DNA from: a virus
Taxonomy: Duplodnaviria > Caudoviricetes
Strand: one strand, 5' to 3'
IMG/VR virus record: IMGVR_UViG_3300038379_000201
Location: 1-32,048 of that record
Length of the DNA: 32,048 nt
In this document: positions 12,198-24,252 of the stretch, one piece after another
Position numbering within the stretch: position 1 is the first letter of the stretch
Layout of the letters: each line of letters starts with the position of its first letter
Program-made: the position numbers and the translations under genes
Notes under the pieces: model-generated
Told to the model about the DNA's origin: nothing
The model's input: the letters and a program-made list of their open reading frames with translations, nothing else
Database searches by the model: none

Positions 12198-12490
12198 CTC
12201 TTCCTCGTTTCACCGCTTCCGCCGCAGGCCGGGCAATCTCGTTTCGGGCCGCGCGGCGTCTTAACACGCCCTTCACCTTCGCACACGGAACACTTTGTCA
12301 CAGCGGCGAGGTCTTCCAGGTGCTTGAGAAGCACGTCTCGTGCCAACTTGATCTTGCCGATGTCGGACCCGTCGCCGCCTTGGTCGGGGTGGGCCTTAGC
12401 GACAGCGAGCGCAAAGGCGCGGCGGATGGCGGCAGCGTCTGCGTCGCCTGCTCGCAGGCCAAGCGTCAAGTATGCGGCGTGCAGTTTCAC
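12194..12490 (-). CDS. minimal DnaJ-like protein (J-domain + zinc finger)
   Basis: [20 protein letters not shown] plus CSVCEGEG and CPACGGSG. Confidence 0.85.
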
Positions 12491-12879
12491 GGACGACGCA
12501 CTAACTCAAGGATGAAAGACTTGTTCCTGCGCCAAAAAGCCAGCGCGCCTACACCCATGTCACGAATACGCTCATCGTCGAAAACCTCCCAGTGCGCAAT
12601 GGCGTGTTGTTGGCAGCCTATAGCAAGCGTATCGTTAGTCCACGTCAGCGGCCACGTATCAAACTGTGCGGAGCGAAGTTCTTTGCCGTTGCCTACTGCG
12701 CCGGTGAGGTCCGCGCCGGTGAGGTCCGCGCCGGTGAGGTTCGCGCCGGTGAGGTTCGTGTAGGTGAGGTCCGCGCCGGTGAGGTCCGCGCCGGTGAGGT
12801 TAGCGCGGACGCCTTTGAGGTTGCCCGCAAGCCAAAGGGCGTGTAGGCAAAGGATTTCTTTAAGCTGGTCGGGGGTCAT
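12487..12879 (-). CDS. pentapeptide-repeat protein (7 repeats) with IGCQxH C-terminal domain
   Basis: A(D/N)LTG repeats; AAGGAG RBS. Confidence 0.9.
12700..12804. repeat. 7 x 15-bp tandem repeat
   Basis: Unit GCCGGTGAGGT(C/T)CGC on the + strand. Confidence 0.9.
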
Positions 12880-16306: not shown

Positions 16307-17254
16307 TCAATACGACTCCGCTTCTTCTCGTGTCAGAAAGAAATGAATCCCCGGCGCGCACTCGACTAGCGGGTTAGGGTCGTAGGCGTCAGGGCGGACG
16401 ATCTCGCCGACGACGTAAGTGGTCTGGTTGTCATATATCGACACGGGGTCCTTTGCGGGGGCCTCAAGAACGCGCGCAAACTCGGCGCGACACTTCTGGC
16501 CGATCACAGAAGCGGTGCGCCTCGCGTCCGCCGGGATTTCCAGTTTTGCGACGCCGCCGCGCAGTTTTTTGTAAACTATAAGCGCTCCTTCCTGCGGGAT
16601 TTGGAATGGCGAGAACTTGGTTTTTCCATCTATTTTGGCCTCGGACAGGTCGGCCTCGGACAGGTCGGCCTCGGACAGGTCGGCCTCGGACAGGTTGGCC
16701 CCGTACAGGTTGGCCTCGGACAGGTTGGCCCGAGACAGGTTGGCCTCGGACAGGTCGGCCTCGGACAGGTCGGCCTCGGACAGGTTGGCCCGAGACAGGT
16801 TGGCCCGAGACAGGTCGGCCCGAGACAGGTTGGCCCGATACAGGTCGGCCTCGGACAGGTTGGCCTCGGACAGGTTGGCCCGATACAGGTTGGCCCGATA
16901 CAGGTCGGCCCCGTACAGGTTGGCCTCGGACAGGTCGGCCTCGGACAGGTCGGCCCGAGACAGGTCGGCCCCGTACAGGTTGGCCTCGGACAGGTCGGCC
17001 TCGGACAGGTCGGCCCGAGACAGGTCGGCCCGAGACAGGTCGGCCCGAGACAGGTTGGCCCGAGACAGGTTGGCCCGATACAGGTCGGCCCCGTACAGGT
17101 CGGCCCCGTACAGGTCGGCCTCGGACAGGTTGGCCCGAGACAGGTTGGCCCGAGACAGGTTGGCCCGAGACAGGTCTGCGCGGACGCCTTTGCGGTCTTT
17201 CTCCAGCCAGAGAGCGTGCAGCCGCAGGGTTTCTTTGAGTTGGTCGGGGGTCAT
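16307..17254 (-). CDS. pentapeptide-repeat protein (36 repeats) with DUF5758-like C-terminus
   Basis: A(D/N)L(SR/SE/YG/YR) x36, then KCRAEFARVL...ECAPGIHFFLTREEA. Confidence 0.92.
   Translation of the reverse strand: MTPDQLKETLRLHALWLEKDRKGVRADLSRANLSRANLSRANLSEADLYGADLYGADLYRANLSRANLSRADLSRADLSRADLSEADLSEANLYGADLSRADLSEADLSEANLYGADLYRANLYRANLSEANLSEADLYRANLSRADLSRANLSRANLSEADLSEADLSEANLSRANLSEANLYGANLSEADLSEADLSEADLSEAKIDGKTKFSPFQIPQEGALIVYKKLRGGVAKLEIPADARRTASVIGQKCRAEFARVLEAPAKDPVSIYDNQTTYVVGEIVRPDAYDPNPLVECAPGIHFFLTREEAESY
16640..17179. repeat. 36 x 15-bp tandem repeat
   Basis: Minus-strand unit GCC-RAC-CTG plus one of TCTCGG / TCCGAG / TACGGG / TATCGG. Confidence 0.97.
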
Positions 17255-17268
17255 CGGTTAGTCTCCTT

Positions 17269-17394
17269 TCAAAATTTTTGGGGTTGGCCAGCGTCCCGCC
17301 GCTTGGCGATACGCTCAAGGAGGTGCGTCGCCACAATCGCAAGCGCAATGGCCCACAGAACGACGGTAAGGAGGCAGTTAAGGGCGCGGATCAT
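17269..17394 (-). CDS. 41-aa single-TM protein
   Basis: Manual translation MIRALNCLLTVVLWAIALAIVATHLLERIAKRRDAGQPQKF; weak RBS. Confidence 0.5.
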   Translation of the reverse strand: MIRALNCLLTVVLWAIALAIVATHLLERIAKRRDAGQPQKF

Positions 17395-17470
17395 GTTTCA
17401 TTAAATGATGTGTTGCACTGGCGCTAAGGTTTCGCGTCGCGGCGTCAAACTGGTCATAGATGTTAGTCAT
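17378..17470 (-). CDS. 30-aa ORF, possibly a truncated gene
   Basis: MTNIYDQFDAATRNLSASATHHLMKHDPRP; start overlaps the end of the upstream gene; AAGGGA RBS. Confidence 0.4.
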   Translation of the reverse strand: MTNIYDQFDAATRNLSASATHHLMKHDPRP

Positions 17471-18389
17471 TTTCGTTCCCTTTCGCTGTTTCAAAAAGCG
17501 CCAGAAGGGCTGCGCCGTACTTTTTCCAATAAACGAGAGCATTGGGGGCCATTGCAGAAATCTCTTCGTCGGAAAATTTGCGCCACGTCTCGTGAGGATG
17601 AGATTGGCAGCCTATCGTCAACACCTTGTCTGTGATCGAGACAGTCCAGGGGTACTGCTCGAAAGGGGGCAGAGTGATGGGATACAAAAAAGTGTTCTTA
17701 TCGACAATACGGGCGTAATCGCCGATGCGGGCGCCCTCGCCGATGACGGCGCCCTTGCCGATGCGGGCGCCCTCGCCGATGCGGGCGCCCTCGCCGATAT
17801 GGGCTCCCTCGCCGATGCGGGCGCCCTCGCCGATATGGGCTCCCTCGCCGATGCCGGCGCCCTTGCCGATGCGGGCGTACTCGCCGATGCCGGCTCCCTC
17901 GCCGATGCCGGCTCCCTCGCCGATGCCGGCGTAATTGCCGATGCCGGCTCCCTCGCCGATGCCGGCTCCCTCGCCGATGCCGGCGTAATTGCCGATGCCG
18001 GCGTAATTGCCGATGCTGGCGTAATTGCCAATACGGGCGTACTCGCCGATGCGGGCGTACTCGCCGATGCCGGCGCCCTTGCCGATGCGGGCGTACTCGC
18101 CGATGCCGGCGCCCTTGCCGATGCGGGCGTACTCGCCAATATAGGCGCCCTCGCCGATGCGGGCGCCCTCGCCGATATGGGCGCCCTTGCCGATGATGGC
18201 TTTCTCGCCGATGCGGGCGCCCTCGCCGATGACGGCGCCCTTGCCGATGCGGGCGCCCTCGCCGATGACGGCGCCCTTGCCGATGATGGCTTTCTCGCCA
18301 ATATAGGCGCCCTTGCCGATGATGGCTTTCTCGCCTCGCCATATTTTGGCGGTTGAGCCGTCGGGGTTAGCCCAGTCCACTAATTGCAT
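17463..18389 (-). CDS. hexapeptide-repeat (left-handed beta-helix) protein with IGCQxH C-terminal domain
   Basis: 34 x IGxxAx; AAGGAG RBS. Confidence 0.9.
   Translation of the reverse strand: MQLVDWANPDGSTAKIWRGEKAIIGKGAYIGEKAIIGKGAVIGEGARIGKGAVIGEGARIGEKAIIGKGAHIGEGARIGEGAYIGEYARIGKGAGIGEYARIGKGAGIGEYARIGEYARIGNYASIGNYAGIGNYAGIGEGAGIGEGAGIGNYAGIGEGAGIGEGAGIGEYARIGKGAGIGEGAHIGEGARIGEGAHIGEGARIGEGARIGKGAVIGEGARIGDYARIVDKNTFLYPITLPPFEQYPWTVSITDKVLTIGCQSHPHETWRKFSDEEISAMAPNALVYWKKYGAALLALFETAKGNEND
17709..18320. repeat. 34 x 18-bp tandem repeat
   Basis: Unit approximately GCCGATGCGGGCGCCCTC on the + strand. Confidence 0.97.
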
Positions 18390-18402
18390 TTGTCTCTCCT
18401 TT

Positions 18403-18477
18403 TGGCCTGCCTCATCGGGCGCGCTAGGCCAGGTGCGCGCGACGGTCCGCAGAATGCAAGGCGCGGACCGTTTCGGC
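18403..18477 (-). ncRNA. type II hammerhead ribozyme with pseudoknot, U4C core variant
   Basis: GCC-GAA-ACGGTCCGC(loop)GCGGACCGT-C^GCGCGC(ACCTGGCCTA)GCGCGC-CCGATGA-GGC-AGGCCA. All three stems and the core are in register. Confidence 0.85.
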
Positions 18478-18479
18478 TG

Positions 18480-18692
18480 TTAATTCATGAAACAGGCCGC
18501 CTCGTCTCCGTAAGGGACCTCGGCATTGAAAGCCTCGCACGCGGCGAGGGTGCTGAAAGTCTCAGCCGCGCACGTGTCGGCCGTGTATTCTTCGCTGATA
18601 CACGCGCGCCAGGTTGTGCGGTGTAAGGGGTTCAAGGCGACGCTGGCAATGTAGAGCGCCGCTGCGCCGGCGATTAAAAGTGTGGTTCGCAT
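18480..18692 (-). CDS. small signal-anchored, 4-Cys protein
   Basis: 70 aa, hydrophobic N-terminus, AAGGAG RBS. Confidence 0.7.
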   Translation of the reverse strand: MRTTLLIAGAAALYIASVALNPLHRTTWRACISEEYTADTCAAETFSTLAACEAFNAEVPYGDEAACFMN

Positions 18693-18695
18693 TGT

Positions 18696-18863
18696 CTAAT
18701 CTCCTTTCCTGTTGCTACGGTCGAAAGCGGGTTCTCGAACCATTGGCGCCGGGATTTTGCGGCCGCGGATCGCGGCGATTGCTTGGCGCAGCTGGCGTTG
18801 ATTGTGATCCCGCGTCGCGTCGTCGCGGGCGGATGGATGGGCGATGATGAGGGGTTTGATCAT
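18696..18863 (-). CDS. hypothetical 55-aa protein
   Basis: Manual translation MIKPLIIAHPSARDD...RKGD; ATGA overlap, GAGG RBS. Confidence 0.55.
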   Translation of the reverse strand: MIKPLIIAHPSARDDATRDHNQRQLRQAIAAIRGRKIPAPMVREPAFDRSNRKGD

Positions 18864-19015
18864 CCTACTTCCTCAACAATAACGCGGTCGCCGAATCGGC
18901 CCGCATCTTCGTAGCCCGCCGCGATCCGCGGCCGCAAAGCCACGGCGTCAAAGTCGCCTTCGATCTCGACGGGCGAGCGCGAGCCTTGAAGGTCTATAAC
19001 CCGATATTTTTTCAT
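18860..19015 (-). CDS. hypothetical 51-aa protein
   Basis: Manual translation MKKYRVIDLQGSRSPVEIEG...IVEEVG; ATGA overlaps at both ends. Confidence 0.6.
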   Translation of the reverse strand: MKKYRVIDLQGSRSPVEIEGDFDAVALRPRIAAGYEDAGRFGDRVIVEEVG

Positions 19016-19242
19016 TTCTCACTCTCCACAGTTGCAGTTACTTCATCGTGACGATGCAATAGCTTTGCCCGCGCCTGATGTTCCAAGATGGCCAGATCGG
19101 CGAGATGGTCGCGATAGGCGTCTCGCGCCATCTTAGCGACCATGCGGGCGGCCTCAACGTCGCCGGGGAGCGTGACGACTACGTCGTCGACGATGTACGC
19201 AGTCTGAAGATTTGCGGTCATTGGGGCTTTGTCGTTTTGCAC
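19012..19242 (-). CDS. hypothetical protein
   Basis: 76-aa ORF in a tightly packed early cluster. Confidence 0.6.
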   Translation of the reverse strand: MQNDKAPMTANLQTAYIVDDVVVTLPGDVEAARMVAKMARDAYRDHLADLAILEHQARAKLLHRHDEVTATVESEK

Positions 19243-19244
19243 GG

Positions 19245-19520
19245 TTAAATCATCCCTAAAAGAGTCATGGCGGTTTCGTACGCCTTGCGCGCGTCGCCTA
19301 TACGTCGCTCGTAGCGGCGCATCGGGTAGGGGCTTTGATCGTCATCTTCTTGCTCGAATTTTAGCGCACGAAACGCCGCGCGCTTCTCAGACTCGAAAGT
19401 GATCATGGCGAGCCGCTCTAGGCAAGCGGGGGTAAAGACCCGCATTTCCATATCCCCGGAAGCACAGACTTCCGGCGTTCGCTTGTCCTTACTCGGCGGG
19501 AGGGAATAGGTCGGTTTCAT
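19245..19520 (-). CDS. hypothetical protein
   Basis: 91 aa, AGGTGA RBS. Confidence 0.65.
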   Translation of the reverse strand: MKPTYSLPPSKDKRTPEVCASGDMEMRVFTPACLERLAMITFESEKRAAFRALKFEQEDDDQSPYPMRRYERRIGDARKAYETAMTLLGMI

Positions 19521-19528
19521 GGCGTCAC

Positions 19529-19714
19529 CTATGCGCAGTAAACGCCAATGGCGTTTGGGTCATGCGCCGGCGCCTCGCGCGCCGTCACAACGGCCCATTT
19601 GAATGCGGGAGTCGGCGCAACCCAAAACTTACGCTCGGGAAACTGCGCTTGCAGCACGGCTAGCCGTTTCTCTGCATTGCGCCTTAAGCGGTACTCGCGA
19701 TAAGCCCTTTTCAT
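19529..19714 (-). CDS. hypothetical protein, first gene of the leftward block
   Basis: ATG 19714 after AAGGAG; 61 aa MKRAYREYRLRRNAEKR. Confidence 0.7.
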   Translation of the reverse strand: MKRAYREYRLRRNAEKRLAVLQAQFPERKFWVAPTPAFKWAVVTAREAPAHDPNAIGVYCA

Positions 19715-19740
19715 AATACTATTCTCCTTTGTTGTGTAGC

Positions 19741-19769
19741 ACCATAACACGCTAGGCGTTACCAAACAA
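19741..19769 (-). promoter_or_regulatory. putative leftward early promoter
   Basis: TTGTTT-17 bp-TATGGT with TG extension. Confidence 0.5.
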
Positions 19770-20449
19770 CTAACGCACCGAGGTTTTTGATCACGAAATG
19801 TTACAAGGCTGCACTCGTATGGGTTGAATTAGTCGTTTTGTTTTCGCTGTAGTCTTAGCTACGCAGTTGTGTCGAGGACGAAAGGACTGAGTGGCGTTGT
19901 AGATTGTTTCGGGAGCGAATTGGAGGGTCAAAAAGGTCCCCGCTTTGTACTATCTCTAATGTGATAGTGTCTCTACATATTATATCACTATCAGATTTTA
20001 GATGGCACAAAGAGCGCGGGCGCAGGGGAATACACCGTGTAGTTTACTTGGCAGCCTCCCCGCCTCCCCGCCTCCCCGCTACCGCACCCCTCCCCCGCCC
20101 AGTCCCTCCGTCCACGGAACATTGCCGCGCCGTCGCGTCACCAAGCCTCATCGTCCGCATACGAACTAAGTGGCTAGGCTGCATGGCGTCGACGACGCGG
20201 CGTTGGCCGTGGGGCGGGGCGACGCAGCGGCCGGGGGGGGGGGTGGTTCTTGGTTGGGCCGAGGTGCTTTGCTAGGGCCCAGATTCTGGATATGCCAAAT
20301 TTCCCAGCCCCATGTTCCCTCGCCACACAGCCCCTAAATTTTCCGCTTGACCCCGCCCCAAAAACCTGCCACACCTCCAAGCGACGGGTAGGCCCTCCCC
20401 TGCAACGGCCTCGCAAGCGCGCCGCCGCGGCCCGTCTCCGCAGGAGCTT

Positions 20450-22154: not shown

Positions 22155-23794
22155 CCGACGACAAGCGCGCCCGCCGTATTGCGCTGCTCAAGCGGTACCG
22201 GGAAGATTTTCCGACATTCGCAGAGCAGAACCTTAAAATACGCGACAAGGACGAGACTATTATTCCATTTCGGCTAAACCGGGCGCAGCGCTACGTCTTG
22301 GAGCAGTTTAACAAGCAGGAGGCGGCGACCGGAAAGGTTCGCGCACTTGTGCTGAAGGGACGCCAGCAAGGCATCTCGACTCTTGTCGAGGGCCTATACT
22401 ACTGGAAAACGTCGCTCAACAAAAACCGCGCGGCCTATATCCTTTCGCACGAACAGCCTTCCGCCGATAACCTCTTCGCGATGGTCGAGCGCTACCACCG
22501 ACTTAACCCTATTGCGCCGAACACGGGCTCCTCGAACGCCAAGGAGCTTTCTTTCGACGTCCTTGGAAGCCACTACACTGTCGCAACAGCGGGCACCAAG
22601 GCCGGCGGACGCGGCCGAACAGTATCGCTGTTTCACGGGTCCGAAGTGGCGTTGTGGCCGAACGCCAAAGACCACTTCGCCGCGTCAGTACAGGCTGTGC
22701 CGGACCGTCCCGGAACCATGGTCGTATTGGAGTCGACGGCGCACGGAGCCTCCGGCGAGTTCTACGAGCGCTGGTGCGACGCCGTACGCGGGTTTGACAG
22801 TTTTGGGAACAAGGTTGACTACATTCCGATATTTGTGCCGTGGTTTTGGGACGAGGGCTACGTGCGTCAAGTTGACGCAGATTTCGTGCTCGGAGCAGAG
22901 CCCGATGACACGGGTATCAGCGAGCAGGACTACGCTACGCTCTACGGGCTCTCCAATGAGCAGATGGCGTGGCGCCGAGCGAAGATCGCAGAACTCCGCG
23001 ACCCCGCCAAGTTTCGACAAGAATACCCCGCGACACCAAGCGAGGCGTTCGTCGCCTCTTCGGAAGATGCGTTCATCAAGCCGCACCTCGTCATCCGCGC
23101 CCGCAAGCGCCAAGGCGTCGAGGGGTACGGGCCGCTTATCATCGGCGCAGACCCGGCAGGCTCGGGCGGCGACCGCTTCGCGGTCGCTTTCCGGCGCGGC
23201 TTGAAGGTCGAGCGGGTTGAGTGGCGGGACAAGATAGACACCGTCACGGCGGCGCAGTGGCTTCGGTCGCTTGCGAAAGACCACAGGCCGGAGAGGCTGT
23301 ATGTCGACGCCGGCGGCATCGGTCACGCGGTCATCTCCATGCTGCGAACGTGGCCGGAGACCGAGCGCGTCGTCAGCGCTGTCAACTTCGGCGGCACGTC
23401 GGAGCACAAGCGCGCCAAGCCAAAGGTGCCGGGACCCAAGAATCGCCGGGCGGAGATGTGGCAGCGGCTCAAGGACTGGTTGGAGCTTGAAGAGGGCGTG
23501 GCCTTGCCCGACCTTGACGCGCTCTCGGCGGACCTTACGGCCCCCAAGATCAAGCCGACCATGACGAACGATTTGCTGCTGGAGTCCAAGGAGGAGATGA
23601 AGAAGCGGGGCGTCCGGTCGCCGGACCTCGCCGACGCTATTGCTTTGACGTTCGCGTCTATGCTCTATGTTCCGGCCGAGAAAGCGCCGCCGCCAGCTCC
23701 GCGGCCGTTTGTCGACGACACGAAATCACATGGCTTGGCCGACACTATGCGAAACACGTTTCGCCCCGGCACGCATAGCGGCTGGATGAATTGA
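22151..23794 (+). CDS. terL: terminase large subunit
   Basis: LKGRQQGIST, FHGSEVA, LESTA, IGADPAG, VDAGGIG, SPDLADA. Confidence 0.96.
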   Translation: MTDDKRARRIALLKRYREDFPTFAEQNLKIRDKDETIIPFRLNRAQRYVLEQFNKQEAATGKVRALVLKGRQQGISTLVEGLYYWKTSLNKNRAAYILSHEQPSADNLFAMVERYHRLNPIAPNTGSSNAKELSFDVLGSHYTVATAGTKAGGRGRTVSLFHGSEVALWPNAKDHFAASVQAVPDRPGTMVVLESTAHGASGEFYERWCDAVRGFDSFGNKVDYIPIFVPWFWDEGYVRQVDADFVLGAEPDDTGISEQDYATLYGLSNEQMAWRRAKIAELRDPAKFRQEYPATPSEAFVASSEDAFIKPHLVIRARKRQGVEGYGPLIIGADPAGSGGDRFAVAFRRGLKVERVEWRDKIDTVTAAQWLRSLAKDHRPERLYVDAGGIGHAVISMLRTWPETERVVSAVNFGGTSEHKRAKPKVPGPKNRRAEMWQRLKDWLELEEGVALPDLDALSADLTAPKIKPTMTNDLLLESKEEMKKRGVRSPDLADAIALTFASMLYVPAEKAPPPAPRPFVDDTKSHGLADTMRNTFRPGTHSGWMN

Positions 23795-24252
23795 TGACTC
23801 GCGCTAAAACACACTCTCTGCGAAAGTGTGTCGAGAAAATTTCTGTAGAGAACAGAAAAGACTGTATACCTTGGCCATTTAGGTCAAAAACGGTCGGTTA
23901 TGGCTGCCTTAACGTGGCTGGGCGCAGAGTCTACGCGCACCGTTACGTCTGTACCCTGCGGCACGGGCCGCCGCCCTCAGAAAATCTGCAAGCAGCCCAC
24001 CTGTGCGGGAACAGGGCCTGCTGCAACCCCCTTCATATAAGGTGGGCTACGCCGTCTGAAAACTGCCTTGATAAGTCCCTCCACGGCAAAGACAGTCGTG
24101 GAGAATCCAATCCAAAGTCCGTATTGACCGCAGACCAAGTGCGGGCTATAAGGGACGATCCACAACCACAAGCCGTCTTAGCAAAAGAGTACAGCGTGTC
24201 CGTGTCAGCCATAAACCGCATCAAGACGCGCAGCACTTGGAAGCACCTGTAA
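23794..24252 (+). mobile_element. free-standing HNH homing endonuclease
   Basis: YG...AHR...AAHLCGNRACCNPLHIRWAT..EN plus C-terminal HTH-like segment; lower GC. Confidence 0.9.

Follow-up and report, generated by a model that had tools for sequence, protein, structure and literature searches.

The window, that is, the whole stretch of DNA that was analysed (32,048 nt, G+C 0.607), is a contig of an uncultured tailed phage. Rightward genes include terminase, portal, scaffold and capsid, and the leftward ones include methyltransferase, primase, DNA polymerase, exonuclease and helicase. Its best terminase matches among named phages are 38-40% identical, and an HNH endonuclease gene (23791-24252) sits between terminase and portal. 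Ahead of the leftward block, two sigma70-like sites (19903-20008, minus strand) match the consensus and are candidate early promoters; two sites against 1.4 expected in shuffles is a weak excess. These sites are followed by six small genes with gaps of -4 to 8 nt, by the element described here, by the gene of a hexapeptide-repeat protein, and then by a short ORF and a pentapeptide/DUF5758 gene, onward to primase. Between the promoter-like sites (~20000) and 12883, where the primase gene ends, a search of the minus strand gave no terminator-like site. The gene upstream of the element (18480-18692, minus strand) encodes a 70-aa protein of no known family with one homolog at 77%, and the downstream gene (17463-18389, minus strand) encodes the 308-aa hexapeptide-repeat protein (Pfam PF00132, E 5.6e-42; phrog_5353). 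Three repeat-protein genes, two pentapeptide and one hexapeptide, lie in one early block (12487-12879, 16307-17254 and 17463-18389). The C-terminal region of the hexapeptide protein and the short pentapeptide protein match the same PHROG families (31567 and 37032), which suggests a shared tail domain on swapped repeats.

Between the upstream and downstream genes, which are co-oriented, is an intergenic gap of 90 nt, 75 of which are occupied by an element on the minus strand (18403-18477) with the organisation of a type II hammerhead ribozyme whose loop I forms a pseudoknot with the 3' tail; sequence, descriptor, Rfam and our own model of the family all point to it. The upstream stop codon ends at 18480, 2 nt ahead of stem II. 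The 5' strand of stem II, GCC (18475-18477), has its partner GGC at 18409-18411, in the sequence as in the descriptor match, and is followed by the core bases G12-A13-A14 (18472-18474), which agree with the Rfam consensus. Stem III starts from the pair A15.1-U16.1 and covers, with a 12-nt loop, 18442-18471; its strands (18471-18463 and 18450-18442) form nine Watson-Crick pairs, a tenth G-U pair being possible, and have pair probabilities of 0.98-1.0 when the element is folded in isolation. The GUC triplet lies at 18443-18441, and hammerhead numbering puts the predicted cleavage site after its C17, between 18441 and 18440. Stem I and loop I take up 18419-18440, with six G-C pairs joining 18440-18435 to 18424-18419, an arrangement found by the descriptor and consistent with covariation in the family. 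The catalytic core C3-C4-G5-A6-U7-G8-A9 (18412-18418) reads CCGAUGA, the U4C change sitting at 18417, and can be compared with the variant spectrum of relatives given below. Loop I, UGGCCU (18431-18426), is complementary to the 3' tail AGGCCA (18408-18403) over six Watson-Crick pairs, with a calculated duplex energy of -9.1 kcal/mol. One base separates the tail from the Shine-Dalgarno (SD) sequence AAGGAG (18396-18401), which lies outside the pseudoknot and is followed 6 nt further on by the ATG at 18389. An earlier note on this DNA had described the stems, GAAA, core and the GUC triplet with its cut site, the complementarity of loop and tail, the one-base spacing to AAGGAG and the nearly filled gap, and all of this was confirmed base for base.

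A descriptor covering types I-III, which left position 4 free and tolerated one additional base after A9, gave a single match in the window, namely this element with its 24 pairs. In 300 dinucleotide shuffles, 14 type II matches appeared in total, the best with 18 pairs. The Rfam model RF02276 (Hammerhead_II) scored the element at 32.3 bits, with E 9.1e-5 on 501 nt and E 0.0058 over the whole window, where it was the sole match at E<=1. The gathering score of RF02276 is 37, so the element is not a formal member of that family and a default Rfam scan misses it; in this sense, the Infernal search proposed in the earlier note does recover Hammerhead_II, at a score under the formal threshold. Our own model, built from 68 relatives, gave 63.9 bits for the window element and 13.4 for the next site, a score that is partly circular because the collecting patterns were derived from the window element itself. 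The topology is that of type II, a three-way junction with stems I and III loop-closed and stem II open, and the core-adjacent pairs 1.1-2.1, 10.1-11.1 and 15.1-16.1 are present as G-C, G-C and A-U. Six pairs between loop I and tail also place it in the pseudoknotted subfamily, for which at least 4 bp are asked. Compared with the strict consensus of Perreault et al. 2011 (13 core positions, U at 4), 12 of 13 positions agree, the exception being the C at 18417. The core does fit the form CYGANGA / GAA / A15.1-U16.1 / H17 of the descriptor in PMC13481778, which, in the sections we draw on, is in use with C/T variation at that position. Judged by its sequence, the element is a hammerhead of a known kind under the CYGANGA definition, with a tolerated core change.

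The sub-threshold Rfam score and the one core letter off consensus might raise the suspicion that G+C-rich hairpins came to resemble a hammerhead by chance. This we find scarcely credible, as the best shuffle falls six pairs short, the motifs flanking the variable stems are common to 37 viral loci, and the element lies on the coding strand and suits the space between the two genes; chance resemblance is refuted by the shuffles and by the pairing kept in 259 relatives (see below). The hammerhead fold is almost certainly real. The contig of one sequencing run spans 18256-20147 without a differing letter, a run that may be the window's own source, and no RNA sequencing runs carrying the locus are listed. 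A second ribozyme was found in the contig, which may be incomplete, neither by Rfam nor by the descriptor nor by our own model; the element is a single copy and not part of a cluster of at least two ribozymes close together.

The closest known systems are the type II hammerheads of Perreault et al. 2011. In the sections of that paper (PMC3088659) on which we rely, these, too, have stem II open, stems I and III closed by loops, a GUC triplet and the pseudoknot, and are likewise intergenic among phage genes; the loop and tail motifs of the RF02276 consensus are also the same as in the window element. The latter differs from both in its long loop III, its 32.3 bits against 37 and its single copy in place of a cluster, and its C4 would have been rejected by the 2011 filter, since that study, as far as those sections tell, dropped core variants from its alignments unless activity had been measured. 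In Desulfovibrio vulgaris, three type II hammerheads in the neighbourhood of phage genes (Olzog et al. 2021, PMC8782182) have the same type and context, core letters aside. According to the parts of that report used here, all three cleave in vitro and cleavage was seen in cell RNA, read ends being inconclusive for one locus; for the window element, cleavage is a prediction. Tandem prophage hammerheads are also described as cleaving in vitro and in E. coli (PMC3088659, in part). The HHphage of haloviruses HF1/HF2 shares with our element a variant core, a position 13 nt before a start codon and an early region, and a transcript 5' end was mapped near its cut site; it differs in belonging to an archaeal virus and in having an insertion near C3 instead of U4C (sections of PMC3088659). 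A viroid hammerhead with the same U4C change (Ambros and Flores 1998, via excerpts of PMC3088659 and PMC4075628) was weaker in vitro and still infectious, that is, sufficient in vivo; the viroid is an RNA replicon, while the window element would act in a DNA-phage mRNA as a type II ribozyme with a pseudoknot.

The earlier note had singled out U4C as a notable departure. Using a pattern that fixes motifs on both sides of the variable stems, we found the 37 viral loci mentioned above, six of them with C4, and three scans followed in which core positions were left free. In the first (core free; 10 of 64 parts of the viral collection), 121 loci gave 102 distinct elements, of which 86 passed the structure filter and 85 had a core of at least 7 bases; the 16 dropped rows were nearly all unstructured. 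U4C occurred in 7 of these 85 and G8A in one, with no other change at the fixed positions. The second scan covered 57 of 64 parts, with the core free and without an additional base after A9. Of its 124 matches, 108 were distinct, 86 of these were structured and 85 were scored, with U4C in 12, U4A or U4G in none, and G5 and A6 constant; the known U3-A8 swap was seen in four, C3 with A8 (a C-A mismatch) in six and an insertion after A6 in four. In the third (metagenomes, positions 4 and 7 alone free; 17 of 64 parts), 132 matches reduced to 126 distinct and 115 structured elements, 11 with U4C and none with A or G at position 4. Changes of G5 and A6 were absent from the two scans that left both free, and the free position 7 was A or G in 8/85 and 9/115. 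The scans overlap, and when pooled by motif alone, with no structure filter, they comprise 259 distinct elements, 22 of them C4. At 8-14%, U4C outnumbers every other substitution seen in this subfamily at core positions that are normally fixed, so that what had looked special recurs among relatives and had already been published for the viroid. For type II hammerheads of phages, our search of the open-licence literature found no report that U4C recurs.

This recurrence was not seen in a marine-phage type I family sampled in the same way (133 matches, 124 distinct, 63 structured), where U4C occurred in 0/63, though C stood at position 7 in 19. Fisher's p for 12/85 type II versus 0/63 type I is 0.0013, a value that overstates certainty because the sequences are related. 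Several C4 elements are one base (in stem I and loop I) from a U4 element and other C4 elements form a group of their own, which suggests that C4 arose more than once. No covariation of C4 with position 7 or with pair 1.1-2.1 was evident. At least five of the six stem I pairs are present in 20/22 C4 elements and in 231/237 U4 elements, and the pseudoknot is slightly shorter in C4 elements (mean 4.6 bp versus 5.2-5.4 bp). The scans gave some minor observations as well. An extra U between A9 and stem II is present in 63/86 scan-one elements (L118-L238), and C4 occurs in 2/77 pooled elements with an extra base after A9 and in 20/182 without; this pattern may reflect one abundant gut-phage clade. 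The A8 cores, four with U3 and six with C3, come from L363, L395, L400, L408, L427, L399, L407, L457 and L464, there being three matches in L427 and two different variant cores in L395.

The element belongs to a widespread phage subfamily in which stem I, stem III and the pseudoknot all show compensatory changes. The relatives were collected by patterns from the window element, which by design fixed stem II, the greater part of the tail and some of the core, and the sequences are not mutually independent. Among the 259 motif-selected elements, stem I pairs 1-5 are kept in 249-257 and four stem III pairs in 248-256, above 300 column shuffles in both cases, and the one free pseudoknot pair switches between C-G (135), U-A (98) and G-C (8). 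When 68 of the 113 elements of equal length are aligned, pairing holds in 98.0% of cells and both sides have changed in 217, with 0/500 shuffles as high; the number of pairs showing double-sided change, 10, is not above shuffles (191/500). The covariation that the earlier note had wished to see among homologous phages is found across the subfamily; for this locus itself, the search for close phage relatives gave none (see below). One metagenome contig (L520) carries four type II hammerheads 300-420 nt apart.

The position of the element between a stop codon and a ribosome-binding site turned out to be equally shared. Flanks were long enough in 173 relatives, and 148 of these are followed by an SD-like motif, a start codon and an ORF, versus 329/2747 random positions; with a stricter 5-base SD motif the counts are 102/173 and 137/2752. 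In 140/173 the stop of an upstream ORF lies no more than 12 nt from stem II, compared with 189/2852 random positions, and stop triplets adjoining stem II close an ORF of at least 40 codons in 131/177 cases, against 780/6209 elsewhere. The stop-ribozyme-SD cassette is shown by these counts to be the norm of the subfamily, and the abutment of the ribosome-binding site, to which the earlier note had given weight, is not peculiar to this locus. The SD motif stands no more than 2 nt from the tail in 42/173, and in 78/173 the upstream stop abuts or overlaps the first base of stem II (distance -1 or 0; loci L359-L599). With recurrent C4 and placement at the ribosome site both common in relatives, the element is an ordinary member. 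The same note had also tied the ribozyme to the hexapeptide-repeat gene. By a simple pattern count, hexapeptide or pentapeptide repeats are present in 0/148 downstream ORFs of the relatives, and a link between ribozyme and repeat-protein genes is ruled out.

In our reading, with a probability of about 0.68, the element is a pseudoknot-stabilised type II hammerhead in the stop-to-RBS gap of a phage operon, likely self-cleaving at 18441/18440. Considering its parts, cleavage as such is likely, it would probably be slower than in a U4 ribozyme, and a processing role in vivo is reasonably likely. In this class of ribozyme the loop I/tail pseudoknot is reported to speed cleavage by orders of magnitude, and cleavage after H17 leaves a 2',3'-cyclic phosphate and a 5'-OH (both from excerpts of PMC3088659). 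Self-cleavage would split the early polycistron. The 5' piece would comprise the six small genes behind the promoter-like sites and end in the 2',3'-cyclic phosphate; the 3' piece, with the repeat-protein, methyltransferase and primase genes, would start with its 5'-OH directly on stem I and the pseudoknot and have a 13 nt leader before the AUG. The two pieces would then decay and be translated independently. Host nucleases would decide between protection and degradation of the 5'-OH product; RNase E prefers 5'-monophosphates, and 5'-OH ends are a target of RNase J. Polycistron processing is the working hypothesis for phage and prophage hammerheads in the sections of PMC3088659 and PMC6765202 considered here, and the splitting put forward in the earlier note equals it; the part that needs correction is the extent of the 3' mRNA, which likely carries the methyltransferase and primase genes besides the repeat proteins, given that no terminator-like site occurs down to 12883. 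The role of the element would be a generic punctuation of the phage polycistron and not a control specific to the hexapeptide gene.

A possible objection is that the element is a hammerhead by descent which effectively no longer cuts, silenced by U4C together with competing helices and retained as a structured spacer that supplies the ribosome-binding site. The lowered activity of the viroid variant in vitro points this way, as does the available part of PMC9901934, where a type III construct was poorly active with any single mutation in its CUGA region, which counts against cleavage. In the same direction, an Aedes candidate, C4 by its primer name, may be among the inactive Aedes examples of Figure S7 in PMC3088659; an Aedes example in the legend of that figure, in the portion at hand, carries several core changes. 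Competing folds of lower energy than the pseudoknot-free hammerhead fold, and the single copy in the contig, would also agree with silencing. On the other hand, in the sections of PMC4075628 consulted, 50 MS2 plaques that had been selected for lost cleavage show 0 changes of U4. The window copy is also perfect in its 24 pairs and in the 12 remaining core positions, and U4C recurs in the family while G5 and A6 stay constant and position 4 is never A or G, even though position 7 is A or G in some relatives; decay would not spare position 4, G5 and A6 in this way. We regard silencing as unlikely and keep to the self-cleaving reading.

ViennaRNA nearest-neighbour folding cannot model the pseudoknot, and gave -31.0 kcal/mol for the hammerhead fold without it, -35.7 for a local alternative and -47.0 when upstream codons were included; the hammerhead fold is not the minimum in this calculation, which counts against the self-cleaving reading, and a similar upstream-paired minimum occurs in 38/187 relatives. 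The upstream gene's last codons (18487-18498, minus strand) are complementary to 18404-18415 over 12 bp, two of them G-U, and form a possible competing helix; they can also form a shorter helix with the 5' strand of stem II. This raises the idea that cleavage is gated by translation. The last upstream codons would pair with core and tail (or stem II) until a ribosome covers them, or, along the lines of the earlier note, a downstream ribosome loading at the SD would melt the pseudoknot, and a slow U4C core would leave such a switch time to act. The 12-bp helix is strong: its -21.5 kcal/mol is reached by 23/4531 minus-strand 35-mers and 0/3000 shuffles, by 0/186 upstream regions of relatives and by 0/1957 control windows, and the stop 2 nt before stem II and the SD 1 nt past the tail would suit a switch. 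The footprint of an initiating ribosome extends some 20 or more bases ahead of the AUG, and the tail, at -19 to -14, lies at its edge. Against gating, the helix was noticed after the fact, 597/5000 synonymous resamplings of the 11 codons equal its energy, and the single homolog conserves the encoded peptide, which indicates that the protein sequence largely dictates the pairing. There is no family signal for upstream pairing (upstream mean -9.4 versus control -9.6). The 12-bp helix as a selected feature is not supported. Among relatives the tail-to-start distance ranges from 11 to 41 nt, a spread that argues against a fixed coupling to the downstream ribosome.

A further pairing was considered, since loop III (18453-18459) contains a perfect 7-base complement to the start region of the hexapeptide gene (18385-18391). 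The helix with the AUG region forms in 1/6 folding contexts, that is, it depends on the chosen window, and stem III keeps a probability of 0.98-0.99 in the other five; it is equalled by 84/2889 windows and has no family signal (mean rank 0.47), and was dropped. Gating by translation appears improbable to us, and slightly more so its fuller form, a translation-gated switch with a slow C4 core, and more broadly a class of phage stop-ribozyme-SD cassettes with C4 as the sign of a tuned rate. If gating were true, release of the repeat-protein and replication mRNA would be coupled to early-gene translation, and if the rate-tuned C4 class were true, U4-only searches would overlook such cassettes.

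The locus is of less use than the numbers obtained for the family. Apart from glmS, what self-cleaving ribozymes do in bacteria and phages is described, in the part of PMC6765202 at hand, as largely unknown; the window element is a clean test substrate and does not settle the matter. Most pseudoknotted phage hammerheads are compact cassettes between a stop codon and a ribosome-binding site, and about 1/10 of them have C4, compared with none in the marine type I family, which means that strict-consensus searches undercount them. The pseudoknot may be what allows C4 to be tolerated, or C4 may set a slower processing rate.

Close relatives of the locus were sought and none was found. Viral contigs contained 0 matches to an exact 22-nt pattern, a search with the C-terminal part of the hexapeptide protein returned 0 loci, and the DNA around the single 77% homolog of the upstream protein was absent from viral contigs. 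A blastn search of 17300-19800 against named phages returned three records, all weak and in the repeat region only. A scan of bacterial and archaeal genomes yielded mostly chance matches, with 2/120 structured, both U4. We also collected 80 terminase loci, 14 of them at 48-55% identity, five of these with at least 3.7 kb upstream of the gene; the pseudoknotted type II subfamily was found at 0/80. Two distant terminase relatives do carry type I hammerheads (three sites in L036, and one in L069 at 7800, minus strand), and these belong to a large family, rich in A+T, for which the viral contigs are estimated to contain ~270 stored stretches.
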